In this document: one piece after another, positions 35,892 to 56,837 of the stretch
How positions within the stretch are numbered: position 1 is the first letter of the stretch
Layout: every line of letters starts with the position of its first letter
Assembly: GCA_017465885.1 (NCBI GenBank)
Contig: JAFTVG010000027.1
Location: 52,799 to 116,798 of the forward strand
Length of the DNA: 64,000 nucleotides
Direction: 5' to 3'
Source of the DNA: Clostridia bacterium
GTDB lineage: Bacteria > Bacillota > Clostridia > Oscillospirales > CAG-272
The notes under the pieces: model-generated
What the model was told of the DNA's origin: nothing
What the model saw: the letters and a program-made list of their open reading frames with translations, nothing else
The model's database searches: none
Made by a program: the position numbers and the translations under genes

Positions 35892-35904
35892 CCCTCACAA
35901 AACA

Positions 35905-36312
35905 AAAATCCCGTTGCCCTTGGCGTGATACTCTTAACGGAGTATCACGCCGGTTCTATTCGCCTCTCGGCGAGTTCTATTGCTTCGCAGTGATATTCGG
36001 CTTACGCCGAGTGATATTCGCGGCTCACGCAGTGAGCATCGCGAGCTTTCAGGGCGAATAGAATATCACTGTGAGGCGTAGCCGAACAATATCACTGCCC
36101 GCAAGGGCAATATCACTCTTTGCGAAAGCAAAGAATATCACTCATAGACAGCAGAAAAAGAGAGAGTCTTACGGAATTTTGCTTCCGAAGCACTCTCTCT
36201 TCTGTTTTTATTGCAAGTTTCGCATTTGTTTTACAAATGCATCGGGCTGCGCCCATACCCCTTATAAAACTTCTCCGATAAGGACATCACCCATTTTGGG
36301 CAACGGGTGTGT
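35905..36312. repeat. nested inverted-repeat / multi-hairpin intergenic element
   Basis: A 12-bp perfect hairpin, GGCGTGATACTC/GAGTATCACGCC, lies at 35922-35951. AGTGATATT occurs at 35989 and 36010, with a degenerate copy at 36031. Its complement AATATCACT occurs at 36062, 36088, 36109 and 36134. Short GC hairpins lie between copies. TTCTATTCGCC (35955) pairs with GGCGAATAGAA (36053). The outer inverted repeat is CCCGTTGCCC (35910) and GGGCAACGGG (36299). Confidence 0.8.
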
Positions 36313-37711: not shown

Positions 37712-37788
37712 GGAGGCATAGCTCAGCTGGTTAGAGTGCTTGCTTGACATGCAAGAGGTCACTGGTTCGATTCCAGTTGTCTCCACCA
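37712..37788 (+). tRNA. tRNA-Val (anticodon GAC), CCA encoded
   Basis: The cloverleaf was folded by hand. The acceptor stem GGAGGCA/TGTCTCC has one G-U pair. D arm TAGCTCAGCTGGTTAGAGTG. Anticodon stem CTTGC/GCAAG with loop TTGACAT. T arm ACTGG-TTCGATT-CCAGT. 3' ACCA. Confidence 0.9.
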
Positions 37789-37942
37789 AAAATGAAAGCG
37801 ACCTTTCGAGGTCGCTTTCATTTTTATCCAAGCCGACGAAGGAGGCTTGGTATGTAATCAATGCGCTTGCGCGTTGTATGTAATTGCGACGAAGTCGCGT
37901 ATGGCATCACGCGCAAGCGTGCATATTCGTCGGCTTGATAAC
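37786..37942. repeat. structured direct repeat, copy 1 (157 bp)
   Basis: The first 66 nt are identical to 38625-38690. The remainder is diverged but co-linear. An outer stem, TTATC(C)AAGCCGACGAA / TTCGTCGGCTTGATAA, encloses three hairpins (37859-37876, 37886-37898, 37908-37921). Each hairpin is preceded by GTATG. Confidence 0.85.
37792..37825 (+). terminator. terminator after tRNA-Val (part of direct repeat copy 1)
   Basis: ATGAAAGCGACCT-TTCG-AGGTCGCTTTCAT (13-bp stem, UUCG loop) followed by TTTTT. Confidence 0.85.
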
Positions 37943-38072
37943 ATGCAACACTTCGTGTTGATTCCATACAGCCCTTACGGGCTGAGGACATACCGCCTAC
38001 GGCGGATTTCATCCACGGCTACGCCGTAAATGATGTTGCGCTCCGCGCCCCCGCCTTTTTCTCCCTCGTGTC

Positions 38073-38100
38073 TTGAAAATACCGGAAACTGTGATATAAT
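38073..38100 (+). promoter_or_regulatory. candidate promoter of the cassette ORF
   Basis: TTGAAA (38073-38078) - 16 nt - TGaTATAAT (38092-38100), 24 nt before ATG 38124. Confidence 0.65.
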
Positions 38101-38123
38101 GAAATCAGAAAGGCGGTGGAGAT

Positions 38124-38576
38124 ATGATCATAAAAAAAGAAGATTATATTATGGACGTTGACATTGAACAAACAAAAGAATATTATAAATCTCACACGCT
38201 TTGTAATTGCTCGGCTTGTCGCAATTATTACGTTCAAGTAAAAGATAACTTTCCTTTGTTGAATGATTTTTTACTTGAACTCGGTGTCAAAATTGAGCGT
38301 CCAGATGAGCTTAGCTATATTGAATCGGATAACGAAATCCAGTATCTTTGTGCAGCATATACTGTATGTGGAAAAATACTTGAATTTGACAAATACGAAA
38401 TTGATTTATTTGAAGATAGCGGTGTTGTTAGCATCGTGTTCAACAACTCCTATATTCCAAACGAGCAAAAAACAGATTATTTTGTTTTAATGGTTTACAA
38501 TATTCGCTTGCCGTGGATATTAAACGAGCCCTTTCCTGAACCGGAACCCATCAAGAAAAAATTGTTGATAAAATAA
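38124..38576 (+). CDS. hypothetical 150-aa protein (AT-rich cassette ORF)
   Basis: Clean ORF with a GGTGGAG RBS. Its composition is visibly AT-rich compared with the flanks. It contains a CNCSAC motif and an acidic/Pro-rich tail. No domain recognised. Confidence 0.65.
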   Translation: MIIKKEDYIMDVDIEQTKEYYKSHTLCNCSACRNYYVQVKDNFPLLNDFLLELGVKIERPDELSYIESDNEIQYLCAAYTVCGKILEFDKYEIDLFEDSGVVSIVFNNSYIPNEQKTDYFVLMVYNIRLPWILNEPFPEPEPIKKKLLIK

Positions 38577-38624
38577 AGGCTATATTTTCAAAAAAATGAA
38601 CAGCATCTTTTTTGTCAACTCGAG

Positions 38625-38783
38625 CCAAAAATGAAAGCGACCTTTCGAGGTCGCTTTCATTTTTATCCAAGCCGACGAAGGAGGCTTGGTGTGTAATAAA
38701 CGCGCCCCGCGCATTGTATGTAATTGCGACGGAGTTGCGTATGTCATCATGCCGGGGCATGCATGCTTCGTCGGCTTGATAAC
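38625..38783. repeat. structured direct repeat, copy 2 (159 bp)
   Basis: See copy 1. The hairpins differ in sequence but remain paired (for example CATGC-CGGG-GCATG replaces CACGC-GCAA-GCGTG). Confidence 0.85.
38631..38664 (+). terminator. terminator after the cassette ORF (part of direct repeat copy 2)
   Basis: The hairpin is identical to 37792-37821 and is followed by a T-run. Confidence 0.8.
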
Positions 38784-38852
38784 GTACCTCAAAATAACTT
38801 GGCGTTTTTGTCAACGAGTCTAAAAAAACAAGAAACCCGATCGGCGGCTACG

Positions 38853-38867
38853 AATAGGGATGTTATC
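38853..38867. repeat. left terminal inverted repeat of the element
   Basis: AATAGGGATGTTATC. The reverse complement of 57024-57038 is AATAAGGATGTTATC. Confidence 0.7.
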
Positions 38868-38943
38868 CCATAAGTAGTTGTTCGGAGCATAGGAGATATG
38901 GAAAAATCCATATCTCCTATTGCTTTTTATAGTTGCTTTGCCG

Positions 38944-40581
<1,638 letters not shown>

Positions 40582-40692
40582 TTACCTCCTTCATGCAAGT
40601 CAAACCGATTGAGAGGTGTGGTGCGGTATATAGTTTCCGCACCAACAGGATACTCCCAATCGATTTCAAAGTCCAGCGACTTTAGCCGGAAA

Positions 40693-40995
40693 TTACGAAA
40701 CATTTTTGTAACGAATCGAAATCTCCGCTTCGATCAGCCGTTTGATCAAGCCGTCAAAGCTCACGGTATTACAACGATTGAACTCACTTCGCACAGTGTA
40801 ATCCGAGCCGTCGATCACGTGGATACGTTCACGGATTAGCCTTTCTCCCGTCAGATAAAAAACGATCCCGCTAAGCTTCTTCACAGCAAAGCGAGGATCG
40901 TTTGTGCTATCATCGGGCGTTCTGAATTCAACGCTCTCCTTATGACTCCATACGGGATTGCATTCGTTTTCATAAACAACTTTTCTTTTCATCAA
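40693..40995 (-). CDS. hypothetical protein (100 aa) between relaxase and recombinase
   Basis: Clean ORF, 13 nt after the relaxase stop. No domain recognised. Confidence 0.55.
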   Translation of the reverse strand: MMKRKVVYENECNPVWSHKESVEFRTPDDSTNDPRFAVKKLSGIVFYLTGERLIRERIHVIDGSDYTVRSEFNRCNTVSFDGLIKRLIEAEISIRYKNVS

Positions 40996-41008
40996 ATTCC
41001 TCCTTTCA

Positions 41009-42001
41009 TTACATATACATTCCGTAACCCAAGCCGTTTGCCTGCTCGTATTCTTCTTTGGTACAGTAGCAAACGAATGCTTGAGGTGATATCTTGCGTC
41101 CGAGTATTTCTTCGAGACGCTCTTTTTCTTCCCAGTCCATTTCGGTAAGCTGTCTTGGCGTGTAGGCTTCTCTTGGCGGTACGGCAGATAGAACGTCGCC
41201 GATCATTCGGATCAGTCCCGTTGTTACCGTCACATTCATATCCTCATCGTGTTCGGGTGTTTTGTAGCTTCGGTACATCTCAGCAAGCGCTCCGTTACAA
41301 CCGCCCATCGCAAAGTAAAGCTCGATATTGGATTTGAGAAACCGCTCATCGAAGAGCTTGTTGTCACGGCAGGTATATCCTTCGGGTGTGGTGAAGGTCA
41401 TATACTTGTAATCCGAATACCACTTGACGCTGTATCCGTGTCGCTCCATACATTCGATGAAAGCCTCGGGTGTGGGACTGCATTCAAGCGCCCAATCAAG
41501 AAAGGCACACAGACGCTTTTTCCATTTGGGATATCTTCCGTAGGTGCATTTCTCTTCGGTAACCGAGAGACCGCGCTCACGGCACAGCTTGTTGGAGTAC
41601 TCCTTTATCTTCAGCATATCGTCTCTTGACTGATGAAACTTCTTTCCGTTTTCAAAGTTCACCGAATTGAAAACGATGTGATTGTGAATATGCGCCTCGT
41701 TGATGTGCGTTGAAACCACCGCCTGATAACCGCCGAAGTACATGGCAAGCTCCATTCCGATCTCGTGGGCAAGCTCAGGTGTCACGTTTTCTTCGGGAGC
41801 GAAGGACTGTATCACATGATAGTACTGTCTGCCGTCCTCCTTTCCGAAGCGCTCTTTGACAAACAGAAACTCATCGTGTGCAGACTCAGGCGCGCAGTTG
41901 ACACCGTCGATCAAATCTCGGTCGGTTGCTTCTGGTCGTGTGATATACGGAAAGATATTGTTCATCGGACAGCTCGAGGTAATGAATTTAACGATTGCCA
42001 T
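41009..42001 (-). CDS. relaxase/mobilisation nuclease (MobA/VirD2 family)
   Basis: 330 aa. N-terminal relaxase fold with the histidine triad HINEAHIHNHIVFNSVN. It overlaps the upstream mobC. Confidence 0.88.
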   Translation of the reverse strand: MAIVKFITSSCPMNNIFPYITRPEATDRDLIDGVNCAPESAHDEFLFVKERFGKEDGRQYYHVIQSFAPEENVTPELAHEIGMELAMYFGGYQAVVSTHINEAHIHNHIVFNSVNFENGKKFHQSRDDMLKIKEYSNKLCRERGLSVTEEKCTYGRYPKWKKRLCAFLDWALECSPTPEAFIECMERHGYSVKWYSDYKYMTFTTPEGYTCRDNKLFDERFLKSNIELYFAMGGCNGALAEMYRSYKTPEHDEDMNVTVTTGLIRMIGDVLSAVPPREAYTPRQLTEMDWEEKERLEEILGRKISPQAFVCYCTKEEYEQANGLGYGMYM

Positions 42002-42282
42002 ATCTTTTTCAGCTCCTCTCTTGTTTCGTTCAGGTCTACGGCGGGGATCATTCCGGCGTTAACGGCTCGGGTGATCTGATTGAGATTGTTACCGATACGC
42101 CGCAGTTCGTCGGCAAGCTCGTCCACGCCGTTGATGATAACGATGGGTTTATCCAGCGCCACATCACGAAGATAACGGCTAACGGTTCGGTAGGACGAAA
42201 GCGCTTTGTATTCGATCTGCTCTCGTTCTTCGGGCGAGACTCTCGTTCTGAGGATCTCGGTCTTGGGTTGTTTTGATTTCAT
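41962..42282 (-). CDS. mobC: plasmid mobilization relaxosome protein MobC
   Basis: The start is trimmed to ATG 42282 (MKSKQPKTE..., RBS AGGAGG). It has the hallmark ELRRIGNNLNQITRAVN and an RHH-like RVSPEEREQIEYKA. Confidence 0.88.
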   Translation of the reverse strand: MKSKQPKTEILRTRVSPEEREQIEYKALSSYRTVSRYLRDVALDKPIVIINGVDELADELRRIGNNLNQITRAVNAGMIPAVDLNETREELKKIWQSLNSLPRAVR

Positions 42283-42304
42283 AATAATTGAACCTCCTGT
42301 AATA

Positions 42305-42417
42305 GTGATATATCTCGCAAGCGAGATGTGATATGTTGCCTTGTGGCAACGTGATATAACGGCACAAGTGCCGCCATGATATTTCATTTGCAAGCAAATG
42401 AAGTTGCGCCTTCGGCG
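42305..42417 (+). other. motif-plus-hairpin array ending in a candidate oriT (IR + MOBQ-like nic core)
   Basis: GTGATAT occurs at 42305, 42328 and 42351 (23-nt period), and ATGATAT at 42376. Each copy is followed by a different perfect hairpin: ATCTCGC-AA-GCGAGAT, GTTGCC-TTGT-GGCAAC, CGGCAC-AA-GTGCCG, TTCATTTGC-AA-GCAAATGAA. GTTGCGCCTT (42403-42412) follows directly and resembles the AAGTGCGCCCT nic core. Confidence 0.55.
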
Positions 42418-42512
42418 TAGGGGTATGGGCATAGCCCGATGCCTTTGCCGGCTTGTCGTGGCACAAAGGCGAAACTCGCAATAAATGCCGACTGCATTAA
42501 AATGCTGTCGGC

Positions 42513-43595
42513 TTACCGAATGACAGAACCGTCAGTGACGCAAGGAACGCAAGGGTCGCAAGATTTGGCACTGCCGTTTTCTGCGTCACTTACGGCACTT
42601 GCGTCACTAAACGGAAGAACGTATCTAACTTCGAGAATTCTCTCGCCGTTGCTGCGGTGGCTGAGGAAATACACGCCGTGTTCTTCAAGGGTGTATCTCC
42701 ATTTGTTCATCTGCTGCTTGAGTGCCTTGGCAGATATCTGCTCTCCCGAGAAAGAACAATACCTTTCGGTAAACTCCGTATTACTTCCGACGAAGGAATT
42801 GATACTCTGAACAAAAGAAATCAGCTTGTCCATCTCGCTGGGAAGGAGCAATCTTGGATCGTCAAGGCTATCCGAGACACGCTCCCAAGTATGCGTGTCT
42901 TTTGAGAAGCGGATCTCAAGTTCGCGGTATTCAATATCCCGTCCCGTTGCAACGAGCGTGGCATTATCCTGGCTGCGCTTGCTCTTGTCAAGCACGAACA
43001 CCGCATCCACCGCGCCGCTGATGCCCGTTGTGCCGGACAGCTTGTTCAGCGGATCGCTGTCACCTTGCTTGCGAAGATGATGCACAAGCAGAAGCGTGAT
43101 GTTCAGCCCATCGGCAAGTGCTTTCAGTTTACGAAGCTCATCGTAGTCGTTGGCGTATGAGGTGTCTGCGGCGTAGCTTCGTATCACCTGAAAGGTATCA
43201 ATGGCAATGAATACCGTATCGGGATTCTCTTTTACGAATGAACGGATATCATCGCAAAGACCTTCGGCGAGCGTATGCGCCGTGGTTGCGAAGTACACCT
43301 CCTTGGGAACTTCATCGGTGATACTGTTCAGCCGTTCCTGCACACGGCGGAGCGTATCCTCGAGGCAGAGATACAACACCGATCCTTTGTGCGTTTGCAG
43401 ATTCCAGATCGGCTCTCCCTTTGCGATGCGAACGCACAGGTCAAGCACGAGCCACGATTTCCCGATCTTCGGTGCACCGCCGAGGATGCAGATCCCTTGC
43501 GGTATTAGCGTGTCGACACAAAACTTGGTCGGGACAAGTCTCATGTCCATGAGTGTTTCACCGTCTATGACGGTGAGTTTGTTTTTGTCTTTCAT
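42513..43595 (-). CDS. RepA-like AAA ATPase (AAA_25 / DnaB-like P-loop)
   Basis: The start is trimmed to ATG 43595 (MKDKNKLTV..., RBS AAAGGAG). Walker A GGAPKIGKSW, Walker B-like VFIAIDTF, and LLLVHHLRKQG, typical of the RepA/AAA_25 proteins of mobile elements. Confidence 0.8.
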   Translation of the reverse strand: MKDKNKLTVIDGETLMDMRLVPTKFCVDTLIPQGICILGGAPKIGKSWLVLDLCVRIAKGEPIWNLQTHKGSVLYLCLEDTLRRVQERLNSITDEVPKEVYFATTAHTLAEGLCDDIRSFVKENPDTVFIAIDTFQVIRSYAADTSYANDYDELRKLKALADGLNITLLLVHHLRKQGDSDPLNKLSGTTGISGAVDAVFVLDKSKRSQDNATLVATGRDIEYRELEIRFSKDTHTWERVSDSLDDPRLLLPSEMDKLISFVQSINSFVGSNTEFTERYCSFSGEQISAKALKQQMNKWRYTLEEHGVYFLSHRSNGERILEVRYVLPFSDASAVSDAENGSAKSCDPCVPCVTDGSVIR

Positions 43596-43870
43596 TGAAG
43601 ACTCCTTTCCGGGCTTAGCCCAAATATTTTTTGCAAGAGAAAAAGCTCCCGCCGATGTTGGCGAGAGCAATTTGACTTGCGGAGAGTTTCCTCTCTATTA
43701 CATACCCGACATGAAAGTGCCCAAAATGTTCCTGAGAGCAAAAAAATTTCCAAAAAAATCCCCTTGAAGTTTTTATGCATCAAAGGGATAGTTGTGAATT
43801 AGTTTATTCTGTCTTATTAAAATTATAATCTACGAAAACGCCGCCCGCAAAACACAGGCGGCATAAGGGA

Positions 43871-44782
43871 TTATTTTACTTTCTCTATCGGCATCCAAAT
43901 CTGAACGTTACGTTCTGCCTTCGGTAGCCAATGATAGACTGCAAGTTCAGGGGCGTTTTTGAGTTGGAAACCCATTTCCGGCATCCACTCAGTTAGAATC
44001 TGAATCCTCAAATTCAGCAGATCAAAATAATCACAAATGGGGCTTTTGACATCGTTAGTTTCAAAAACAACATAAGTAGTTTCAGGGATAACAATGTTTT
44101 CCAAACCCAAGTCTTCAACAAAATCAACGCCGGTAACGTCTTTGTTATAAAGATTATCTCTTTCCCATCCATCTAACAGATGGCAGTAATAATAGTCATA
44201 ACCTTCATCTGTGATATTGGTGATAACGCAATGTGCATCAATGTTTCGTGATGCGCCACGAAGGAACCACTGTTTTCCTCGCGTCGTCACAAAAAGTTGT
44301 TCCTCCTGACACTCTCTGTCCTTGCCATAGGGTACACCGGTGAAATGAGCTTTATATCCAGTCAAAATCATTTCCGGCTTCTTTTCAATTCTGTAATTCA
44401 TAGGTTTACCGCCTTCCAAAGAAAATTTCAGTACAAGACGGGAATAGGATTTCAGCATACTACCGTTATTTCGAGCCTGCGACGGCAATATACCGTGGAA
44501 CTTCTGGAATGCTTTTGCAAAGCTGTCCGGACTTTCATAGCCGTACTTCAGCGCAACATCAATAACCTTTGCATCACTTGAGGCCAACTCCGTACCGGCA
44601 AGCGACAGCCTGCGATTCCGAATATACTCGCCGATGGTGAAACCGCAAAGAATACTAAACACACGTTGGAAGTGATAGCTTGATGAAAAGCTCTGCGCTG
44701 CGACCATCTCGTAATCAATCGTTTCCGTCAGATTATCTTCGATATAGTCGATAGCTTTTTGCAATCCAATAATCCAGTCCAT
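43871..44782 (-). CDS. AraC-family regulator with GyrI-like effector-binding domain
   Basis: The start is trimmed to ATG 44782 (MDWIIGLQKAIDYIEDNL, RBS AAGGAGGGA). HTH_18 region SSSYHFQRVFSILCGFTIGEYIRNRRL...YGYESPDSFAKAFQKFHG. The ~150-aa C-terminus is GyrI-like. Confidence 0.85.
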   Translation of the reverse strand: MDWIIGLQKAIDYIEDNLTETIDYEMVAAQSFSSSYHFQRVFSILCGFTIGEYIRNRRLSLAGTELASSDAKVIDVALKYGYESPDSFAKAFQKFHGILPSQARNNGSMLKSYSRLVLKFSLEGGKPMNYRIEKKPEMILTGYKAHFTGVPYGKDRECQEEQLFVTTRGKQWFLRGASRNIDAHCVITNITDEGYDYYYCHLLDGWERDNLYNKDVTGVDFVEDLGLENIVIPETTYVVFETNDVKSPICDYFDLLNLRIQILTEWMPEMGFQLKNAPELAVYHWLPKAERNVQIWMPIEKVK

Positions 44783-44863
44783 ATTATCCCTCCTTGTCTG
44801 CCAATATTCTATCAAAAGGCGAATTAAAAATCCCGATATTCCGTGCTGAGTATAATCGGGTTA

Positions 44864-45778
44864 TCATGACTTCAAGAACGCTATGCGCTTTTCTTCGATC
44901 TTCTTCAAATGTTTGCCGACGGCACTGTGCGTTTTGAATCCGAGACGCTCGGCAATCTGCTTCTGCGTGTATCCGTTTGCCTTTAACTTGAAGATTTTGA
45001 CATCGGTCTCGTCACCGAGAAAGGCATAGAATTCTTTGATGGTTTCCACCATTTCAAGATGTGCCTGTGGGTCTTCGTCTGAGAACTCTGTTGCTAACTC
45101 AGGAGTTTTATGCTCGATGTCTTCCATTTGATCCAGCGATTCCAGTTCGCCAACTCTTGTACGTGTGTGATCCCATTGACGATTGAAATCCACCTTGTCA
45201 AAATTGGTGTTTGCGGTAGTTGCGAAATCCTCGTGCGCGCCGATCTCTTTCGATACGCCTAAAATCTCGGGAACGCTTTCCACTTGCATCAGCTTGTTCA
45301 TCATCACGGAAAGGAATAGATCCGCAAACTGATCGAACACAAGGGCGAACTCTGCTTCGGTCAATTCTTCAACTGTTTTGTTATGCGCCTTGGCATACTT
45401 TTCAAGCGCGGCGGTAATGTCCCCTTTTAAGGCGGTCAACATCGAATCTATGATGCGCTCACAAAGAGTTTCATCCGTGAGTATTTCCATCACGACACCG
45501 GCAACCAGATTTTCGTTTGCTTTTTCAAGACAGCGCACGGGAGCGTTGGAGGTGAAGTTGATGAGAGACCCTTTGCCTGTGAGCAGTTTCATCTGCTTAT
45601 TCCAAGACGAAAGGAAATGCTTTTTTGCTTTGATGTACACACGGTTCTGCTCGTCGGTAGCGACCATGGGATCGTATTTTGATACCTGCGTGCTGAAATC
45701 GTGGTCTCTGAAAAAGGCTTTCAGCTCCGCAATGGTCGGTGCGCTATCCTTCTCAAGCAACGTCACATCTGTTTTCAT
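44864..45778 (-). CDS. element-encoded protein with sigma-70 region-4-like C-terminal HTH
   Basis: 304 aa. The C-terminus LKANGYTQKQIAERLGFKTHSAVGKHLKKIEEKR is a region-4/LuxR-like HTH. The N-terminal 240 aa are unassigned. Confidence 0.65.
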   Translation of the reverse strand: MKTDVTLLEKDSAPTIAELKAFFRDHDFSTQVSKYDPMVATDEQNRVYIKAKKHFLSSWNKQMKLLTGKGSLINFTSNAPVRCLEKANENLVAGVVMEILTDETLCERIIDSMLTALKGDITAALEKYAKAHNKTVEELTEAEFALVFDQFADLFLSVMMNKLMQVESVPEILGVSKEIGAHEDFATTANTNFDKVDFNRQWDHTRTRVGELESLDQMEDIEHKTPELATEFSDEDPQAHLEMVETIKEFYAFLGDETDVKIFKLKANGYTQKQIAERLGFKTHSAVGKHLKKIEEKRIAFLKS

Positions 45779-45807
45779 CGATTCTCTCCTTTCACTATGG
45801 TGCTTAT

Positions 45808-45836
45808 ATTATATCATATTTTTACGAATTTTTCAA
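45808..45836 (-). promoter_or_regulatory. candidate promoter (TTGAAA-17-TGaTATAAT) of the sigma-like gene
   Basis: Minus strand: TTGAAA (complement of 45831-45836) - 17 nt - TATAAT (complement of 45808-45813) with an upstream TGA. An 18-nt core is identical to the promoter at 56835-56853. Confidence 0.65.
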
Positions 45837-45900
45837 GGAAGTAACTGTGAACAAAAAGAACAGAGGAACCGCACGTTTAGTGCAGTCCCTCCGTTTCTCC

Positions 45901-46428
45901 TTAGAAGTGTTTGCCTTCGCCCGGGCGGTCTTCGCCTTCGCCGATATAGTCTTCTACCGGTCGGTCATCGATCTCGGTCGGTGTGTCGTTCTCGAAGGGA
46001 TTCGGCTGACCGCCGATCTGAGGTTTGTATTCCGCAAGGCATTGATCCCCCTCGTCGATGCATTCGACGGTTTCTTCTTTCGATTCTGTCGTAACCGTAT
46101 CTTCGGTGATTTCGGTACATTGATCTGTCACGGTTTCTTGCGCCGTCGGTGTTTTTTCTTCATTGAACACCTCGTGTTCTTCGGTCACAACTTCGTTTTC
46201 GTTTACCGTTGTTTCCTTGATTTCAACGGCGGTTTCCGTTTTGCTTAATTCGCCTACAAACGCCGTTACTTCGCTTGTTTCGCTTGTTTCGGGTACTTGC
46301 TCCACCTGCACCGTTATCGCCGTTTGTGACGTTTTTTCGGCGGTCACGGGCGGCTCATCTGTAGCCTTTTGTGGTGTGGATAAGAGCGTCATAATTAGTG
46401 CGAGAATGATGGTGATTAACTTTTTCAT
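45901..46428 (-). CDS. secreted acidic Thr/Glu/Val-rich protein, function unknown
   Basis: The start is trimmed to ATG 46428 (MKKLITIILALIMTLLSTP signal). The mature part is low-complexity and rich in T, E and V. Confidence 0.6.
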   Translation of the reverse strand: MKKLITIILALIMTLLSTPQKATDEPPVTAEKTSQTAITVQVEQVPETSETSEVTAFVGELSKTETAVEIKETTVNENEVVTEEHEVFNEEKTPTAQETVTDQCTEITEDTVTTESKEETVECIDEGDQCLAEYKPQIGGQPNPFENDTPTEIDDRPVEDYIGEGEDRPGEGKHF

Positions 46429-46556
46429 ATATGTAATTCCTTTCCGAGCTCGTCTTTGCTGCTCAACACAAGAATAAACTGAAAAACAAATAAGTCCAGA
46501 GAGAATCGGCATGAAAATGAGGAATCGCACACATTTTGGTACGATTCCTCTGAATA

Positions 46557-46829
46557 TTATTCAATTTCTGAATTCATTACTTCGATGATGATCCTGGCTC
46601 CAAGCGTGAACCCTCTTACAAACGCCTCCCGCTCGGCGATGCCATACATCTCGTTGGTGCACTCGGTAAACTTTTCGAGAATCTCTATTTCCTCGTCATT
46701 CAGACGTTTCTTCAGATCTTCCTCGTGCCGCACGATGTAACCAAGCAGTTCAGAATACTTACTGCCTTTCTTGAAGTCCTTCTCACAAGGAGAGATGTTG
46801 CCGTACCATAATTCTTCAATGATGTTCAT
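46557..46829 (-). CDS. hypothetical 90-aa helical protein
   Basis: RBS GAAGGAGG. MNIIEELWYGNISPCEKDF... I have seen similar small proteins on Clostridial mobile elements, but I cannot name the family with confidence. Confidence 0.6.
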   Translation of the reverse strand: MNIIEELWYGNISPCEKDFKKGSKYSELLGYIVRHEEDLKKRLNDEEIEILEKFTECTNEMYGIAEREAFVRGFTLGARIIIEVMNSEIE

Positions 46830-46930
46830 TTCGCACCTCCTTCATAAAGAGAGCGGCTCCGTCTCGGGAAATCCCGATTCAGAACCGCTCTGTTTTTGTT
46901 TTTGCTATTTACTTTTCTTTTTCGTGCCAT
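46826..46930 (-). CDS. possible 34-aa highly basic peptide
   Basis: Absent from the track. ATG 46930 is preceded by AAGGAGG. It encodes MARKRKVNSKNKNRAVLNRDFPRRSRSLYEGGAK. Its TGA overlaps the downstream ATG (ATGA). Confidence 0.4.
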   Translation of the reverse strand: MARKRKVNSKNKNRAVLNRDFPRRSRSLYEGGAK

Positions 46931-47002
46931 ATGTACTACCTCCTTTTCTTGGTAGCACACACAATATCACAGAAAGGGGTGGAAGGCCAGAGAGAATAGC
47001 GA

Positions 47003-47662
47003 TTATTTTTTATTCTTTTTACCGCGTTTTTGATAGTCCGCGTTGATTTTGTCGCCCCAATCCGCGCCAAGCGGTGCACTTGCTCTGACATTGCAGACTG
47101 CTTTCGCGACCGATTCATACAGAATCTGCGTTCCTTCTTCGTCGGCATTGTAGTTTACGGCTCTATCCTTGCTGATGCCGTAACGCGCGGCTGTTTCAAC
47201 CGCATCAATGTTCGCTCCGATGAACAAGAACTCCCATCCGTACTTTTCCTTTTGACGCTCGATCATCTTCTTAACCTGCTCACTTGTGTAACGGTGGCTG
47301 GCGTTTTCCTGCCCATCGGTTGTGATGACAAACATCGTATGCTCCGGCACATCCTCGTTACGAGCGTATTTGTGAATGTTTCCGATGTGATGAATTGCAC
47401 CGCCGATGGCATCAATCAGAGCCGTGCAACCGCGAACAGTATAGTCCTTGTCGGTCATCTTTGGGATGTCACCGAGCTTCACGCGGTCGTGTAACACCTC
47501 GCTCTCGTCATCGAAAAGCACGGTGGAAACGTAGCAGCCTCCGTCTTGCTTCTTCTGCTTTTCAATCATCGAGTTAAAGCCACCGATGGTGTCGCTCTCG
47601 AGTCCTGCCATAGAGCCGCTTCTGTCCAAAATAAATACGAGTTCAGTAATGTTGTTTTTCAT
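47003..47662 (-). CDS. von Willebrand factor type A (vWA) domain protein
   Basis: The start is trimmed to ATG 47662 (MKNNITELVFILDRSGSMAG). The DxSxS MIDAS motif is present. 219 aa. Confidence 0.8.
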   Translation of the reverse strand: MKNNITELVFILDRSGSMAGLESDTIGGFNSMIEKQKKQDGGCYVSTVLFDDESEVLHDRVKLGDIPKMTDKDYTVRGCTALIDAIGGAIHHIGNIHKYARNEDVPEHTMFVITTDGQENASHRYTSEQVKKMIERQKEKYGWEFLFIGANIDAVETAARYGISKDRAVNYNADEEGTQILYESVAKAVCNVRASAPLGADWGDKINADYQKRGKKNKK

Positions 47663-47741
47663 AATTAAAAACCTCTCTTTCATTTGATGTCTATATTGTA
47701 CATCAATAAAAGAGAGGTTGGGTCGCATGTCAAGCGACAAA

Positions 47742-48098
47742 TTATTTACCTAATGTTGCACTCCACTCAGCTTCCTTAAAACCGACAAGCACGAAGCCGT
47801 CACCGATAAGCAACGGACGCTTTACGAGCATACCGTCGCTTGCGAGAAGCTTTAGCATCTCGTCATCGGTCATAGTGGGAAGCTTGTTTTTGAGGTCAAG
47901 AGATTTATAAAGCAGACCGCTTGTGTTAAAGAACTTTTTGAGGGGCAAACCGCTTTTCTTGTACCATTCTGTCAACTCATCAAGCGTGGGATTGTCGAGC
48001 TTTATATCTCTAAATTCATATTCGATTTTATTATCATCAAGCCACTTTTGCGCTTTTTGGCAAGTGGTACATTTTGGGTAGCAGATAAATTTTAACAT
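47742..48098 (-). CDS. ArsC/Spx-family (arsenate-reductase-like) thioredoxin-fold protein
   Basis: The start is trimmed to ATG 48098 (MLKFICYPKCTTCQKAQKWL, RBS AAGGAG). It has a CxxC near the N-terminus and LVKRPLL near the C-terminus, typical of the family. Confidence 0.75.
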   Translation of the reverse strand: MLKFICYPKCTTCQKAQKWLDDNKIEYEFRDIKLDNPTLDELTEWYKKSGLPLKKFFNTSGLLYKSLDLKNKLPTMTDDEMLKLLASDGMLVKRPLLIGDGFVLVGFKEAEWSATLGK

Positions 48099-48108
48099 AG
48101 TAATCTCC

Positions 48109-48411
48109 TTATTCGATGACTTCAATCAAAAAGCTTACCGGACGAAAACCATCGTTGCAAGAAATCATTGCTGATTTTGGGTTCTTCATCCATCCGTCAT
48201 AGAAATTCTCGCCACCGTGAGCAAGAGTCATTACAAACGGTGAAACGCTATCCCACGCACTGTCACAAAATCCATCGGGCTTTTGCCAACCTTCACAGAT
48301 AAAAATCTGACCTTCTTGTAAGTCACAGGCGTGTTTTATAGGATTTTCATACTTTTCAATCAAATCATCGTATCGTGCTTTTCGCATAACGGTTATCTTA
48401 ATTTTCTTCAT
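48109..48411 (-). CDS. TIGR04076-family protein (function unknown)
   Basis: 100 aa. KITVMRKARYDDLIEKYEN...CDLQEGQIFI...GFCDSAW...ISCNDGFRPVSF matches my recollection of the TIGR04076 family. Confidence 0.6.
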   Translation of the reverse strand: MKKIKITVMRKARYDDLIEKYENPIKHACDLQEGQIFICEGWQKPDGFCDSAWDSVSPFVMTLAHGGENFYDGWMKNPKSAMISCNDGFRPVSFLIEVIE

Positions 48412-48414
48412 ATC

Positions 48415-49440
48415 CTATGCCCCTAACAAACTCTGATCGAACGCAAACAGAGCCTCATTGATTTCAAAAATATTGTAGTTGCCCTTACTGATAAAGTATT
48501 CGATGATAATATCGAACTTATTGCTATGCGATAATGCGAACCCTGCCTTACGGAGCATATCCTCGGTTTCTGCGAGTGAAAGCTCCAAGGAAATCGCAAA
48601 CGCAAGCGCGGTGGGTTTGCTCGGCTTATAATGAATGTCACTACGGATTTTGGAGAACAGCTTGCGGTCAATGTTTGCTTTCTTGTAGCACTCGGCGTCG
48701 GTCATACCCTTTTCGTCAATCTTACGCAGAAGCATTTGAGAAAAGCTCTCGTCGATCTGCTTCAGCTTCGCATCAAGATCGTCCTCTGCCAGCATAGCCT
48801 TGCAATCGCATATTTCAAGAAAGTCGTCATCCGATTTCTTTCGTCTTGTGCGCGGAGCCATTGACGGTAGCGCGTTCATACGAATACGCTCACGGCTGTA
48901 ATCAGTATGCTCGTCCACATAGTTATCATCGATATATTCGGCAATGTCCGAGAACAGCTTCTCGCTGATCTTATAGGCAGCCTTGTCGAATATGACGATA
49001 TAAACGGTCATTTCGTTTTCAAGAAGAAAGTTGCTGATAACGTCGATAGCAACTTTCAAGGCTTGATCCTTGGGGTATCCGTACACACCCGATGAGATAA
49101 GCGGGAAAGCCACGGTTTCACAGTTGTTCTCCTTAGCAAGAGCCAAAGATTCGCGGTAGCAGGATTCAAGTAACGCCTTTTCTCCGTGCTTGCCGTCATT
49201 GTAGATAGGACCGACGGTATGTATTACATGCTTGGCCGGCAAATTATAACCGCCCGTAATCTTCGCTTTGCCCGTCTTGCAACCGCCAAGTGTTCTGCAT
49301 TCGGCGAGCAGTCCCAAACCCGCGGCGCGGTGAATCGCACCGTCAACACCTCCGCCGCCCAATAGCGACTCGTTGGCAGCATTGACAATGGCATCCACCT
49401 TCATTTTTGTTATATCGTTTCTTACTATTTCAAGCGGCAT
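48415..49440 (-). CDS. macro domain (ADP-ribose-binding/hydrolase) protein fused to a C-terminal HTH-like domain
   Basis: 341 aa. N-terminal MacroD/YmdB-type motifs [26 protein letters not shown] and [13 protein letters not shown]-terminal [23 protein letters not shown]...[15 protein letters not shown] resembles an XRE-like HTH. Confidence 0.85.
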
Positions 49441-49453
49441 TGGTGTTCCTCCT

Positions 49454-50530
49454 TTAATTCAATTTGCTCTCCTCTTTTATAACACTGTATTTTTCAGTTA
49501 TATACTGTGCGATACTATCGTAATCGCAAAATAGCGTTTTCTTGTTTATGCCAATCTTATCTAACTCTTTCAAAATGGCTGCTTTATTTTTAATGCGCAA
49601 TTCTATGTTTTGAAAATATAGGTGCTGTTTAGCTAACACTCTGAAGTTGTAGACGGGTTCAATATAAGTCAAATATCCTTGATATAGGAATAATCCCTGC
49701 TGATTTCTACCACGTTCAAATTTCATAATAGGCTGATATAACATATTGGGCAAAAATGTTATAGAGTGAATTGGTTCTGTATATGAGAGAGCTTTTTTGA
49801 AAAATACAAACTGCAAAGTAAGATAAAAATATAAGTCTTCATCGCAAATCTCTAACGGAAACTTCTTGACATCTTCAAAAGCATCTTGCAAATATGCAAT
49901 ACATTCCCATACATCGAACTTTTTGCGCTTTAGTTTTTTATAAAAGACTTGTTCTTTATCATCAAATGGCGAAGAAAAGTAAAACAGATAACTACTAATC
50001 AATTTTTCCATCAAAAATGAAAATGTATTGGGATGCTCTTTTTTGAACTGCTTAAATAACGGAACGAGCAACTCCAACTCGTTGATTGTATTAGCAAATA
50101 CGCACTCAATCAAATTTTCATTTGGGTATCTATGTATCAAATTAGTAACATCAATAGATTCGTCAGATCCTATATAAACGGCACCATCATCATCTTGCTT
50201 GCCGAGGCAAGCGAAATACAGAGCTGTTAATGGTGATGTTGATACATCTAAAAGATTTGTTGGCACTCCGTGATGCTGGGCAAAAGCAATAAAGTCTATC
50301 TTATCTTCGTTGAGTTTGTGGGCGGTTTCCTTATAAAACTCATCAATCATCTTCATAAACGGATACGGCTCGTTTGAGTTCCACCTAAACTCATACGGTC
50401 TAAGTGCAGACGATTGTCTTGACGGGAAAACATCTCCCTCTCCACGATAATACGAAACATTTTCAAACTTGTTTATATATCGTATATACTTTGAAAGACT
50501 ATCTATTTCTATTGTCTTTGTTTTTAACAT
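49454..50530 (-). CDS. FRG domain-containing protein
   Basis: 358 aa. YYRGEGDVF supplies the (F/Y)RG motif. [26 protein letters not shown] matches the conserved core of the FRG domain as I recall it. Very AT-rich. Confidence 0.75.
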
Positions 50531-50595
50531 CTCTTCTCCTTACCTATTAGTGTAATAGTTCAACCGTCTATTAGCTGATTCATCCGATGTAAAAA

Positions 50596-51288
50596 TTATA
50601 GAATTGTTCGTCCAAGCGTTTCCAATTTCACATCAAGCTCTTTAATAGCACTACATACTGCACCGTTCAATTTTTTTAATTCGTGATCTACGGTAGAGAA
50701 ATATTCAATTATTTCCTTTTTGGTAGGACACTCAATATCGACATTATATAATTTATCGTGTAGTGTTTCGAATTCTTCTGCTAAACTTTCTGCATCATAA
50801 GATAGTTTCTTTTTACAGTATTCGTAACCATCAAAGGGCAACAATTCATTAAATGTACTTTGCATAATGAAGGAGTTAACCCAATTTGCTCTGGAGCCTA
50901 CGTCGTAAATGAAATCAAACAACTCCGTCGTATCATCATATTTAGTAAAGTTCTTATGTAAAAGTTCGCTGTAAAACTGTATGTATTCACTCAATTTGGA
51001 TTTTAATTCTTCCAAATATGCCTTTTGAGATTTCAAGTTCGAAGTGCAGCCCTGCTTAATGCCCGAAACCAAACATATAATTAAGCCTGTTATCAATCCT
51101 GCAAAAATATTAGCACATATTGATGACCAAAAAGCCTCACCAATATTGTTCAAGTAAACGGAAACCAATAGCGCAATTATAAAAAGTGCCGTAATTATTA
51201 AAGCAATCCACAAATGAGGATAACTAACATATAACAGCAGTTTTCTTTTTGCGCTTTTTAGAAACTTTTTTATTATGTACTTATCCAT
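50596..51288 (-). CDS. 2-TM membrane protein with helical cytoplasmic domain (paralogous architecture C)
   Basis: 230 aa. Basic N-terminus, TM1 WIALIITALFIIALLVSVYL, a short loop, TM2 ICANIFAGLITGLIICLVSG, then ~140 aa of predicted helices. Confidence 0.7.
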   Translation of the reverse strand: MDKYIIKKFLKSAKRKLLLYVSYPHLWIALIITALFIIALLVSVYLNNIGEAFWSSICANIFAGLITGLIICLVSGIKQGCTSNLKSQKAYLEELKSKLSEYIQFYSELLHKNFTKYDDTTELFDFIYDVGSRANWVNSFIMQSTFNELLPFDGYEYCKKKLSYDAESLAEEFETLHDKLYNVDIECPTKKEIIEYFSTVDHELKKLNGAVCSAIKELDVKLETLGRTIL

Positions 51289-51308
51289 TCTCCATCCTCA
51301 CTGCTTTT

Positions 51309-51962
51309 TTAGAAAAAATGTTTTCCCAGAAGCATTAACTGATCTTCACGTTCACGATACAACTCTTGCATTTTGTCCGCAAGTGGCAATAACTCCGTAT
51401 GAATATCAAGTATAGTTGATTCGATTAGATTCGTTTCATTCGAATTATATAGGCTTTCCCTGTAATTGTTTAGATTATCTCTATCGACAGGATCGTATCC
51501 TTTCTCAGGAAGTATGTCATAGAGTTCTATCGGTAGTTGATTTCTTGCCAATTCAAGTTCATCAATCCATAGATATACATTCTCTCTGTCCTCAAAAATA
51601 TCCCGCTTGCTGCCATATAGAGCCTTGAGTTTATAGCAATTGGCAATATTAGTGATGTTTCTAATAACATCCAGCACATCTTTAAGCTGCTTATACTCTT
51701 TTTGGAGTTTGGCAACTTTATTGTTTCTAATATTTGACAAAAAGTAGAACACCAAACCAGTAAAACAACCACAACTTGTCGAAACCAATGCGCCTGAAGT
51801 CCAATCGGAATAATCATAAATGAGAAAAGATAAAAACAGCAAAAGTGATGCAATCACAAATATGATAATTGCCCACCAAAAAGGAGATAGCCTAAATAAT
51901 TGAGTACGCAATTCTCGATTACGATATCGTATAATTCGTTGTACTGTTTTATCTTTTCTCAT
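51309..51962 (-). CDS. 2-TM membrane protein with helical cytoplasmic domain (paralogous architecture B)
   Basis: 217 aa. Basic N-terminus, TM1 FWWAIIIFVIASLLLFLSFLIY, a short loop, TM2 ALVSTSCGCFTGLVFYFLSN, then ~120 aa of predicted helices. Confidence 0.7.
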   Translation of the reverse strand: MRKDKTVQRIIRYRNRELRTQLFRLSPFWWAIIIFVIASLLLFLSFLIYDYSDWTSGALVSTSCGCFTGLVFYFLSNIRNNKVAKLQKEYKQLKDVLDVIRNITNIANCYKLKALYGSKRDIFEDRENVYLWIDELELARNQLPIELYDILPEKGYDPVDRDNLNNYRESLYNSNETNLIESTILDIHTELLPLADKMQELYREREDQLMLLGKHFF

Positions 51963-52026
51963 AAAAACCTCGCATTGATTGGAATCATAATTCTAAGTAA
52001 CACTAAAATGTCTATTGAATGTTCCT

Positions 52027-52848
52027 TTAGCTATTATCAATCGCATTCAATTTTTCGTTCAAATCCGCATAATAGCGCATTCCTAAACCCTGTAAATTTT
52101 CTTTTTGTAAATACAGCTTCAAAATGTTATCACTAATTTCCGGCTCGGACTTGGGGATCATATTCATATAAAACAAAAAGAGCGCTAATGTGTTTTCTCC
52201 CGCTTCGGTATATACAATCCCTTCAAAATCATCTAATTGCAACTTCATCTTTTTTCCAATGTTTAGTATGATTGTTCTATTATTTATTACAATCATATCA
52301 AATTGTTCTTGTTTAGGAACTTTATTTGAAACATAGAAAGTAGTGATATTGGATATTAGAGTTCTTATATCAGCGTATGTTTTGTCTGCAAAAATAAATG
52401 TTGGGATTCTTTTGACGCATTCTTTTCCTTCCTCCGAGCGTTCAAATCCAGTTCTTATCCTAATGAGTTTTTTTACACTTTGAACCTGTTTTAAACCTCT
52501 TTCAATTTCATTATTATTCGACAAATCCGGTTTAACTTCAATTGCATAATCTACTCCATCTGCAAAGATAATGGATGGTTTTCCTCTTTCACCATCCAAA
52601 GTGTACGGATGAGAGGGGTTAATAACAATACAATCTATAGAATTACTTCTGTTTCCAAAACTGTCAATAATATTGCCTTTAACAATTCTAAATGGAAAAG
52701 GGAAAAATTTTTCCAAGAAGTTATGGATTATATCTTCACGTCGGTCAGATACTTCTTGTGGGGTACCTTCTCCCTCAATACTTGCTTTTGCAAACGAAGT
52801 TGCAATCTCTTGTGATTCTATTTTGAGTATTTCCAGTAGCTTGCTCAT
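52027..52848 (-). CDS. PD-(D/E)xK-like nuclease-fold protein (DUF6602-like)
   Basis: 273 aa. A candidate catalytic pattern is D in NSIDCIVINP followed ~30 aa later by AIEVKPD (ExK). The ATG overlaps the stop of the MmeI-family gene (ATGA at 52845-52848). Confidence 0.65.
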   Translation of the reverse strand: MSKLLEILKIESQEIATSFAKASIEGEGTPQEVSDRREDIIHNFLEKFFPFPFRIVKGNIIDSFGNRSNSIDCIVINPSHPYTLDGERGKPSIIFADGVDYAIEVKPDLSNNNEIERGLKQVQSVKKLIRIRTGFERSEEGKECVKRIPTFIFADKTYADIRTLISNITTFYVSNKVPKQEQFDMIVINNRTIILNIGKKMKLQLDDFEGIVYTEAGENTLALFLFYMNMIPKSEPEISDNILKLYLQKENLQGLGMRYYADLNEKLNAIDNS

Positions 52849-55619: not shown

Positions 55620-55633
55620 AATATCTCCTATAA

Positions 55634-56581
55634 TCAAAATGCGCTTTCTTCTTCAACGAAGCCGGTAATGTGTCTAAGTTGAGAAAACACGGGGACTTTC
55701 TTCTCGTACTTAACTTCTTTTCTAAAATATATTTTAGAACGAAATTCTTCAATTCTATCGGACACATCGTCAAACTTCCTTTGATATACAGTGGTCCACT
55801 CACTACCGTCTTTTTGAGTAGTTTCGGTTGCAAAAAAGAAATCATTGAGATCCAAAACCTTTTTGCAACATACACCAAAACTGCCTTTTCCGTCCTTTAT
55901 CATATTAAAATGAAATACTTCTAATTTGATTTTATTTAGATATTCTTGGAGCTTGGAATAAATCGACTCAAAAGCAATGAGGCGGATCTTTTTGTTGTCG
56001 AAAAGGAAATCTAAATTGCCATACGCATTTGATAAATCCTCCAAATCGATTTTTGATGCGGCAATATACATATCCATATATTTCGTAAATATATTGCTAT
56101 AGTTTTCAATACGTTCATTATAAATTCGAATCAAGATTGATTCGATATCATCACTCTCGGAGAAGGACATTGGTTCATTTTCTTGCATCCAAGCAATGTA
56201 GGCATCACGTTTTTTATGAACCGCCTCGACCCCTAATGCTTTAGCAGTTTCGCCGTCACATTTTTCCCACAGTTTGTTATGCTGTTCTTCTGATATACAA
56301 TCCAATATCAATACTTGAGGCTCATCCAATTTCAGAAATTTAATTTTTCTGAGTTGCACATAAACTTTATATGCAGCTCTTAAAAAATCTTCCATTGCCC
56401 TCCTGCGTTCTGCAAAGTATTCTATCAATGACATAATAAATCCAAGCAACGCGCTACCGAAGATTGCCATTGAAATATCGTACATGAGCTTAATGCAAAA
56501 ACAATTTGCAATTATAGCACAGATTAACGAAACAGCAGAAATTCCGGCGGTGATAAAAGTTACCCATTTTTTTGCTTTCAT
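55634..56581 (-). CDS. 2-TM membrane protein with long helical cytoplasmic domain (paralogous architecture A)
   Basis: The start is trimmed to ATG 56581 (MKAKKWVTF...). TM1 FITAGISAVSLICAIIANCFCI, a short loop, TM2 MAIFGSALLGFIMSLIEYF, then ~250 aa. Very AT-rich. Confidence 0.7.
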   Translation of the reverse strand: MKAKKWVTFITAGISAVSLICAIIANCFCIKLMYDISMAIFGSALLGFIMSLIEYFAERRRAMEDFLRAAYKVYVQLRKIKFLKLDEPQVLILDCISEEQHNKLWEKCDGETAKALGVEAVHKKRDAYIAWMQENEPMSFSESDDIESILIRIYNERIENYSNIFTKYMDMYIAASKIDLEDLSNAYGNLDFLFDNKKIRLIAFESIYSKLQEYLNKIKLEVFHFNMIKDGKGSFGVCCKKVLDLNDFFFATETTQKDGSEWTTVYQRKFDDVSDRIEEFRSKIYFRKEVKYEKKVPVFSQLRHITGFVEEESAF

Positions 56582-56594
56582 ACTCTGAATCCTT

Positions 56595-56801: not shown

Positions 56802-56837
56802 GATAAACCTCTCCGTTTATACAATTTTACATAGTAT

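Follow-up and report, generated by a model that had tools for sequence, protein, structure and literature searches.

Structured repeats around a small gene cassette at a tRNA-Val locus of a Clostridia bacterium and a family of hairpin-array elements behind tRNA genes

The DNA analysed in this study, called the window in the following, comprises 64,000 nucleotides (nt) of contig JAFTVG010000027.1 from the Clostridia bacterium assembly GCA_017465885.1, and all coordinates are window positions unless a locus is named. Behind a tRNA-Val(GAC) gene, the window carries two copies of a structured direct repeat, which bracket a small AT-rich open reading frame (ORF) of 150 codons, termed ORF150. In an original prediction, made from the sequence alone, this arrangement had been read as a single-gene cassette inserted by recombination at a folded site under structural selection, conceptually similar to integron attC sites. 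The repeats are members of a large family of hairpin-array elements trailing tRNA genes, which is undescribed as far as could be found.

The tRNA-Val locus and its two repeats

The direct repeats extend from 37786 to 37942 (157 nt) and from 38625 to 38783 with a spacing of 839 nt, and the CCA end of tRNA-Val forms the left boundary of the repeat and its docking point. As had been predicted, the leading 66 nt are the same in both copies, and the remainder is about 82% identical. By segment, the identity amounts to 96% (37786–37866/38625–38705), 82% (37869–37924/38709–38764) and 100% (37926–37942/38767–38783). The minimum free energies of the repeats are −81 and −79.5 kcal/mol, and both folds are far more stable than those of shuffled sequences (z scores in Table 1). 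In unit copy 1, a local hairpin (CCAAGCC-loop-GGCTTGG) is followed by three modules, each consisting of a linker GTATG(T/G)(A/C)AT(C/T) and a GC hairpin. The three GC hairpins are closed by an outer stem with a bulged C, which reads ATC(C)AAGCCGACGAA / TTCGTCGGCTTGAT in this copy. The outer stem CAAGCCGACGAA/TTCGTCGGCTTG carries one bulged C, and each copy forms a TTATC-C-AAGCCGACGAA...TTCGTCGGCTTGAT stem around three hairpins with GTATG before each of them, which agrees with the fold proposed in the original prediction. The substitutions between the copies had been described as hairpin-preserving. This holds for hairpin 3, which changes from CACGC-GCAA-GCGTG to CATGC-CGGG-GCATG, and for hairpin 2, where a G:C pair becomes G:T, but not for hairpin 1, with a T:G pair in copy 1 and a C:A mismatch in copy 2 versus a perfect C:G pair in the related assembly L006. 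Because these changes in hairpin 1 depart from the perfect form of L006, not all differences between the copies are compensatory.

The GC content between 38001 and 39000 is 39.5% compared to about 50% in the surroundings, and ORF150 is preceded by its own promoter (TTGAAA-16-TATAAT); both features had been correctly recognised. Overlooked at that stage were the five hairpins behind unit copy 1, which form a mirror-image second arm, and the conserved 3′ motif behind ORF150. The two-copy arrangement is also found in the independent assemblies L001, L002, L003, L015 and L016 and is therefore not an assembly artefact.

Table 1. Features at the tRNA-Val locus and at the borders of the adjacent island (CM, covariance model; SD, Shine-Dalgarno sequence; fold z, folding z score versus shuffled sequences).
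Feature	Position	Strand	Evidence or remark
tRNA-Val(GAC)	37712–37788	+	ARAGORN; Rfam tRNA 70.2 bits
Terminator 1	37788–37825	+	A-run, 17-bp stem, 4-nt loop, T-run
Unit copy 1 (left arm)	37826–37939	+	CM R1 83.9 bits, E 1.3e-14; fold z = −9.8
Right, mirror-image arm	37940–38060	−	Five hairpins at 37946–38048; inverted linkers CATAC / ATGATGT
Cassette promoter TTGAAA-16-TG-n-TATAAT	38073–38100	+	Upstream TG; sequence
SD AGAAAGGCGGTGGAG	38107–38121	+	Part of backbone with promoter
ORF150, AT-rich cargo gene, 150 codons	38124–38576	+	ORF call
Cassette 3′ motif GCATCTTTTTTGTCAACTCGAGCCA	38603–38627	+	CCA at end as in tRNA; recurs after other cassette ORFs
Terminator 2, same sequence as terminator 1	38627–38664	+	Repeat and hairpin analysis of the window
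Unit copy 2	38665–38780	+	CM R1 69.0 bits, E 1.1e-11; fold z = −8.7
Putative "empty" cassette end GGCGTTTTTGTCAACGAGTCT with 5′ half of a third terminator AAAAAAACAAGAAACCCGATC	38801–38842	+	Suggested by sequence and motif search
Low-GC island, 18.2 kb	38843–57049		Imperfect inverted ends GGCGGCTACGAATAGGGATGTTATC... and ...GATAACATCCTTATTAAGAGTCACCC
3′ half of split terminator ATCGGGCTTC-T10	57050–57069	+	Sequence
Tentative degenerate third unit ATTCAAGCAG...CCTTGCTTGAT	57070–57161	+	Weak CM match, 13.9 bits, E 0.92

Distribution and structure of the repeat family

For the family scan, an exact pattern derived from the outer stem, TTATCCAAGCCG-N80-110-CGGCTTGAT, was used. It matched at least 118 loci, all of them in metagenome-assembled genomes (MAGs) of gut or rumen Clostridia, and the repeat is thus not unique to the tRNA-Val locus. 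Host groups among the matches listed are Acutalibacteraceae, Oscillospiraceae, Ruminococcus, Faecousia, Christensenella and others. Most of the listed units (67 of 118) follow a tRNA gene of the same strand at a distance of 30–45 nt, with 31 anticodon types represented. Several further listed units follow tRNA-like or tmRNA-like ends without an ARAGORN call, and the remaining ones are situated behind a short motif ending in CA, after an upstream AT-rich ORF. Since the same terminator-plus-unit block is found after different tRNAs in different genomes, the block starts exactly after the CA and the terminator travels with the unit. The unit ends are ATCCAAGCCG and CGGCTTGAT in 119 of 119 aligned units, and the window copies carry every feature of the family, i.e., the terminator, the ATC(C)-core 5′ arm with its local hairpin, three linker-hairpin modules, the distal complement ending in GAT, and the inverted arm. 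When the window was compared to Rfam, only the tRNA passed the gathering threshold, and with a permissive threshold the other best matches remained far below their gathering scores. Plasmid and phage collections yielded no match to the element, and one viral contig was the only viral match. Also, no description of the hairpin-array element was found in the full-text literature, which was searched with the core sequences as strings as well.

In the 119 aligned units, linkers and core are conserved, and the stems vary freely yet stay paired. The 10-nt linker is GTATATCATC in most units and GTATGTAATC or GTATGGAATC in others. In a model-based alignment of 150 matches, 96.0% of the cells are paired versus 72.0% in shuffles, and 677 cells are changed on both sides versus 183 ± 14. 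The covariation score is 0.539 compared to 0.124 in shuffled data (reached in 0 of 500 shuffles) and 0.03–0.06 with slid partners, and RNAalifold reported compensatory changes for 12 of 22 pairs. Independent of any alignment, three perfect hairpins are present in 88 of 117 distinct units, and the stems are nearly wobble-free, with about 2% G:U pairs. The part of the outer stem outside the search pattern covaries as well (CAGG/CCTG, ACAG/CTGT, AAG/CTT, ATAG/CTAT, ACGAA/TTCGT, ATTT/AAAT), and this extension comprises on average 3.54 pairs, versus 1.57 with permuted partners. The core 5′ arm also pairs locally (CCAAGCC-GCA-GGCTTGG), forming a seed hairpin with a loop length varying from 3 to 17 nt. 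At the loci L049 and L051, the core CCAAGCC/GGCTTGG/GGCTTGAT is replaced by CCATTGC/GCAATGG/GCAATGAT, so that the 5′ arm has changed along with both its local and its distal partner. Accordingly, either both mutually exclusive pairings are conserved or both were copied by one process. The family-wide covariation supports selection on the structure of the element, as had been proposed from the two window copies.

Downstream of CGGCTTGAT, one to five more hairpins follow, with the same linker type between them in reverse-complementary form (GATGATATAC etc.), and the linker types of the left and the right arm agree in 113 of 115 units. The loops of the two arms mirror each other: the left arms have 91 GNA and 9 TNC triloops as well as 69 GNNA and no TNNC tetraloops, and the right arms have 1 GNA and 155 TNC triloops as well as no GNNA and 40 TNNC tetraloops. 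In the window, the TNC loops of the right arm on the plus strand correspond to GNA loops on the minus strand. Likewise, the family covariance model matches the opposite strand beside most units, in the window at 37906–38007 (34.2 bits, E 8.6e-5). For the position-wise pairing of left and right linkers (e.g., GTATCTCATC with GATGAGATAC), no strict correlation was visible by eye, and pairing between the arms is not claimed. The window contains a second hairpin array at 35900–36160, between a convergent LRR_5 gene and rpsR. It belongs to another linker family (GTGATATTC left, GAATATCAC right) and carries TNNC loops on the left and GNRA loops on the right, so that its arms diverge rather than converge.

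The element is placed between a terminator and an outward promoter. This position, the scarcity of G:U pairs, the mirrored loop bias and the stability of C-GNA-G mini-hairpins of DNA, for which C:G-closed GNA triloops are typical, favour a role at the DNA level, and we infer that the arms act as hairpins of single-stranded DNA.

Cassettes, recombined units and the adjacent island

The cassette is polymorphic among related assemblies. In L006, L007, L008 and L010, which have identical rpsF sequences, one unit without ORF150 is present, and this unit runs straight into the sequence found after window copy 2. Two units with ORF150 are present in L001–L003, L015 and L016. The strain comparison suggested in the original prediction thus revealed presence or absence of the cassette with two versus one unit. 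Moreover, ORF150 occurs in other contexts. In L018 and L019, ORF150, the right arm and the promoter are located behind a unit of another linker type, with homology beginning at GGCTTGAT, and in L017 ORF150 follows a different array family. Conversely, two units surround other small AT-rich ORFs at L049, L051, L055, L061 and L097. The locus L055 repeats the design of the window after a tRNA-Cys gene, with an ORF for a lipoprotein-like protein of 266 amino acids (aa), the same 3′ motif and the same promoter/SD backbone. This backbone is also found in L017 and L018, and the 3′ motif in L017.

A backbone scan of metagenomes yielded 20 contigs (L157–L176) from one assembly with an identical promoter and SD. 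In these contigs, the distance from the identical SD to the ORF start is constant across at least 15 unrelated ORFs, and the motif GGCATCTTTT(T/C)TGTCAACAC... together with a terminator follows 1–20 nt after the stop codon in 13 of the 14 complete cassette ORFs. The arrays upstream belong to at least four linker families. In the DNA metagenome run X6, backbone segments were covered 1162-fold and 136-fold compared to 3.7-fold for ORF150, with joints in the depth profile from 38127 to 38592–38603. A common promoter/SD and a common 3′ motif around unrelated ORFs strengthen the likeness to integron cassettes that had been noted before. The motif GGCATC(T/A)TTTTTGTCAA(C/A) is present in three copies within 200 nt of L017 (1–200) and in two copies in the window (38603–38620 and 38801–38818). 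On the opposite strand it contains a perfect TTGACA −35 hexamer, and a binding site for a protein or an element of an antisense promoter are conceivable functions.

For ORF150, no match was obtained in Pfam, NCBIfam or PADLOC or among PDB sequences, and the AlphaFold 2 model of its product, with a predicted local distance difference test score (pLDDT) of 86.8, had no PDB fold match. All 47 homologues originate from MAGs or metagenomes. The cargo consists mostly of ORFans, and 8 of 9 other cassette ORFs had no Pfam match. In a variant present at 20 loci, a gene for a four-helix-bundle protein (23S_rRNA_IVP) comes first and a variable second ORF overlaps its stop codon. In L154 (1651–2474), for example, the 23S_rRNA_IVP gene of 115 aa serves as a constant leader, and the second ORF starts on its stop codon (ATGA overlap). 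Homologues of ORF150 are among the second ORFs behind this leader gene. Most contigs with ORF150 homologues are shorter than 2 kb, and assemblies often break in or beside units and cassette backbones, e.g., at the contig ends of L180–L182 (window ~57342). The family is therefore probably under-represented in MAGs.

Two loci bear traces of recombination within the repeats. At L061, two units carry each other's outer-stem halves, the only clear cases of mismatched halves. Such units would be expected if an ACAG-type and a CAG-type unit had undergone reciprocal crossover around the block of 2.3 kb that separates them. At L097 (reverse strand, 6068–6770), the second terminator is chimeric. Its 5′ arm is that of the first terminator, its 3′ arm comes from a different type, and the two meet in the loop TTCGG, which leaves the stem non-pairing and suggests hairpin loops as breakpoints. 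Strain mosaics were also considered for locating crossovers. Their use was partly undermined, because the differences in hairpin 1 are better explained as independent point mutations from the perfect form of L006. When 3037 ORFs were clustered all against all, apart from spurious ORFs that overlap the units, only the four-helix-bundle gene (20 loci) and genes for an ABC ATPase (10) and an SDR (6) recurred. Among the tested genes of the window, there was no match to Phage_integrase.

Next to the second repeat, 60 nt past copy 2, a terminator hairpin carries a low-GC island in its loop, and relatives of the island also abut half-terminators. The island encodes a large serine recombinase (38944–40578; Resolvase/Recombinase/Zn_ribbon/DUF4368), with its gene starting 160 nt behind copy 2, as well as a relaxase, MobC/NikA, AAA_25, an AraC-type regulator, ArsC, and Macro-domain, FRG and DUF6602 proteins. 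A further ORF of 930 aa (52845–55637) has its homologous position in L177 annotated as MmeI-type restriction-modification. Four short GC hairpins in the intergenic region between MobC and AAA_25 (42469–42540) may represent the origin of transfer (oriT) of the mobilisable element. The ends of the island lie outside the repeat and homologous elements are inserted at many unrelated sites, so that the serine recombinase was rejected as the cassette enzyme. The putative empty cassette end proper (38801–38821) precedes the island, and the degenerate unit behind it has the core variant CAAGCA/TGCTTG, which keeps the pairing. Before insertion of the island, the order appears to have been tRNA-Val, terminator and unit 1, ORF150 cassette, terminator and unit 2, empty cassette end, third terminator, and degenerate third unit.

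Interpretation and comparison to known systems

We give about even chances to a reading in which both repeats represent the junction module of a gene-cassette system common in gut Oscillospirales/Clostridia, with a folded-DNA site used by a trans-acting activity. A full module between genes begins with a CA end, provided either by the CCA of a tRNA or by the 3′ motif of a cassette. A bidirectional terminator, the left arm and, on the opposite strand, its mirror image as the right arm come next, and the module is completed by a sigma-A promoter, an SD and an ATG. The left arm is built from the seed hairpin and three modules of 10-nt linker and variable GC hairpin within a long-range closing stem, and the cargo ORF lies between the ATG of the module and the short 3′ motif. 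The ORF150 cassette may have entered or left the tRNA-Val locus via a Campbell-type crossover between two junction modules, which places direct repeats on either side of a cassette and leaves one unit in strains that lack it. In this process the hairpin arms would act as DNA and not as coding or riboswitch-like RNA. They would extrude as single-stranded hairpins, each on its own strand, and a recombination activity that the host supplies in trans could use them as its recognition or pairing site. The data show the structure, the family, the docking at tRNA genes, the cassette polymorphism, the exchange of ORFs on a constant backbone and the recombinant junction modules, whereas we infer both site-specific action and the enzyme. 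The function would be analogous to that of integron attC/VCR sites, with a different architecture and an own terminator and promoter in each cassette. A bolder version, to which we lend clearly less credence, is an independently evolved integron-like capture platform in gut Clostridia, in which self-contained, mostly ORFan cassettes are docked at tRNA 3′ ends and exchanged via folded single-stranded multi-hairpin DNA sites, with structure- and strand-specific recognition of these sites by a recombinase or HUH enzyme encoded elsewhere in the genome.

Several observations weigh against a junction module with a dedicated enzyme. The crossover points vary, being located in the unit interior (L061), in the terminator loop (L097) and at GGCTTGAT (L018). 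Breakpoints at no fixed position are explained equally well by homologous, short-homology or template-switch recombination and by a site-specific reaction. In the 8-kb surroundings of the units at 119 loci, there is no recurrent gene for a recombinase, transposase or HUH enzyme, which leaves the proposed enzyme hypothetical. Most loci have one array per 8 kb in a generic hairpin-array scan, so that there is no stockpiling as in chromosomal integrons, and long integron-like arrays were discarded as a model for this reason. Some genes downstream of units look like ordinary housekeeping genes, and the covariation alignment of 150 matches was fitted to the model. A strand test comparing G:T and A:C mismatches gave 11 versus 4 and 8 versus 7, numbers too small to reach significance, and the mirrored loop bias could result from an inverted duplication instead of selection in both arms. 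Finally, the arrays appear in RNA sequencing runs with a depth comparable to that of tRNA, which would suit a role at the RNA level. Hence, of the predicted insertion of a cassette by recombination at a folded site, the cassette polymorphism is borne out. The site-specific use of the fold is not, since variable crossovers, the lack of a linked recombinase and the arrays in RNA runs make homologous or short-homology recombination between dispersed repeats a live alternative.

This alternative is part of the main rival explanation, a REP/BIME-like structural repeat of selfish or housekeeping nature, in which gain and loss of cassettes and swapping of ORFs are by-products of RecA-dependent or short-homology recombination between dispersed copies. 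Locally, such a repeat could block read-through, protect the 3′ ends of tRNAs or mRNAs, bind gyrase or nucleoid proteins, or be spread by a RAYT-like HUH enzyme. We regard it as possible, though distinctly short of an even chance. Similar to the REP/BIME/REPIN and SMAG elements with RAYT, which are thought to act as single-stranded hairpins, the module consists of a short conserved 5′ motif (here G-T-A-T...ATC) followed by a GC-rich hairpin, occurs in direct and inverted clusters with defined linkers and lies beside terminators. The prevalence of one array per locus, the variable crossover points, the arrays in RNA runs and the missing linked recombinase also fit. However, in REP families the palindrome itself (~20–35 nt, with a GTAG-like 5′ tetranucleotide) is conserved, and the hairpin sequence is constant within a genome, whereas here the stems differ from module to module and covary, and the 10-nt linkers are constant. 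Nor does a REP-like repeat predict the association with tRNA CCA ends across so many anticodon types, identical terminator-plus-unit blocks behind different tRNAs, a long-range closing stem, or a constant promoter, SD and 3′ motif around unrelated, swappable ORFs. In addition, no RAYT or Y1 transposase was found near arrays in 8-kb stretches, which is a weak test.

A structured non-coding RNA is less probable still. As a tRNA 3′ trailer or the untranslated region of a cassette, it could serve as stabiliser, processing signal, protein sponge or source of small RNAs, and the DNA repeats would be copies of its gene. Covariation is expected of an RNA, and GNRA-type tetraloops are frequent. Moreover, metatranscriptome contigs from runs X21, X22, X26 and X27 cover 37821–38048 at a depth of 20–120, with a depth of 0 for the unique flanks and ORF150, and one contig of 962 nt reaches a depth of 130. 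These contigs carry no strand information; they indicate that the arrays, or relatives from other species, are present in RNA preparations. Their depth could stem from DNA carried over into the preparations or from a large number of related copies in the community. Further arguments against an RNA are the strong terminator before the unit and the promoter after it, the second arm built for the opposite strand, the rarity of G:U pairs, the C:G-closed GNA triloops typical of DNA mini-hairpins and the lack of an Rfam family. Still further down in probability, and in our view very improbable, are attachment-site remnants left by the neighbouring large serine recombinase through tandem accretion at one attB site. 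The recombinase gene follows copy 2 after 160 nt in every strain examined, but it is part of a distinct element bounded at 38843 and 57049, and identical or 55–89% identical recombinases with the same mobilisation module are found beside many unrelated genes without the unit. Serine recombinases leave a 2-bp repeat, unlike the 157-bp repeat found here. A simple local tandem duplication without wider meaning would account for two direct repeats 839 nt apart and is already refuted. The 3′ two-thirds of the copies differ by 18%, the family comprises at least 118 loci, the cassette is also present at another locus, where it follows a different unit, and other ORFs are bracketed in the same way.

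Integrons are among the known systems closest to the proposed junction module. In both cases, structure is conserved more than sequence, the repeat separates mostly ORFan, tightly bounded genes, and outer complementary arms carry a bulged base. Strain-variable cassettes, "empty" cassettes without an ORF and a fixed chromosomal docking point are shared as well. In contrast to integrons, the hairpin-array element has no R″/R′ core sites (RYYYAAC/GTTRRRY), intI or attI; GTTRRRY is absent from the sequence at both ends of the window copies, and the prediction that canonical attC core sites and intI are missing holds for the sequence and the window genes tested. An attC site is one imperfect hairpin, whereas the element is a two-armed array of 6–9 short hairpins with 10-nt linkers, whose outer stem with one bulged C covaries but encloses three or four separate hairpins and is followed by the mirror-image arm. 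Integron cassettes are promoterless and expressed from the platform; here, every cassette comes with a terminator, a promoter and an SD of its own. The arrays are short and usually consist of 1–3 units, docking takes place at tRNA 3′ ends, and the hosts are Gram-positive Clostridia.

Other mobile or repetitive elements share single traits. The pdif modules (XerC/XerD) of Acinetobacter plasmids and other IMEX are small gene modules with short recombination sites that rely on a host recombinase acting in trans and encode none themselves, as is proposed for the hairpin-array element. Different from these, no 28-bp XerC/XerD-type site (11-6-11) is recognisable, the spacing of the seed hairpin varies, and the modules are chromosomal and tRNA-linked. 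MITE-like repeats such as pneumococcal BOX and RUP, the Correia elements of Neisseria and enterococcal EFAR are likewise modular, structured and intergenic with variable module numbers and can supply terminators or promoters. They have no sequence relationship to the element and lack its specificity for tRNA ends, its grammar of linker and variable hairpin, and its ORF-swapping backbone. Tandem islands targeting tRNA genes, i.e., tycheposons, cis-mobilisable elements (CIMEs) and integrative and mobilisable elements (IMEs), also carry cargo beside tRNA genes with repeats at the insertion joints and include non-autonomous units mobilised in trans, the latter again being a proposal for the element described here. 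Their repeats correspond to the 3′ part of the tRNA copied by an element-encoded tyrosine or serine integrase, whereas here only CCA is shared and no integrase is linked.

To our knowledge, integrons, the classical system by which single genes are captured and shuffled, are essentially absent from Firmicutes. If the reading as a cassette system is true, a second, structurally unrelated system would exist in the dominant anaerobes of the human and ruminant gut, through which genes could flow in the microbiome by a new route. Such a system could help to explain where part of the ORFan load in genomes of gut Clostridia is located, and structure-defined DNA sites of a new class would become available for the engineering of organisms that are difficult to manipulate. 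Even without a dedicated enzyme, the grammar of the element is unusual, since the 10-nt linkers are constant, the hairpins covary freely, the arms mirror each other and the core covaries three ways, and the element is common enough to break metagenome assemblies at tRNA loci.

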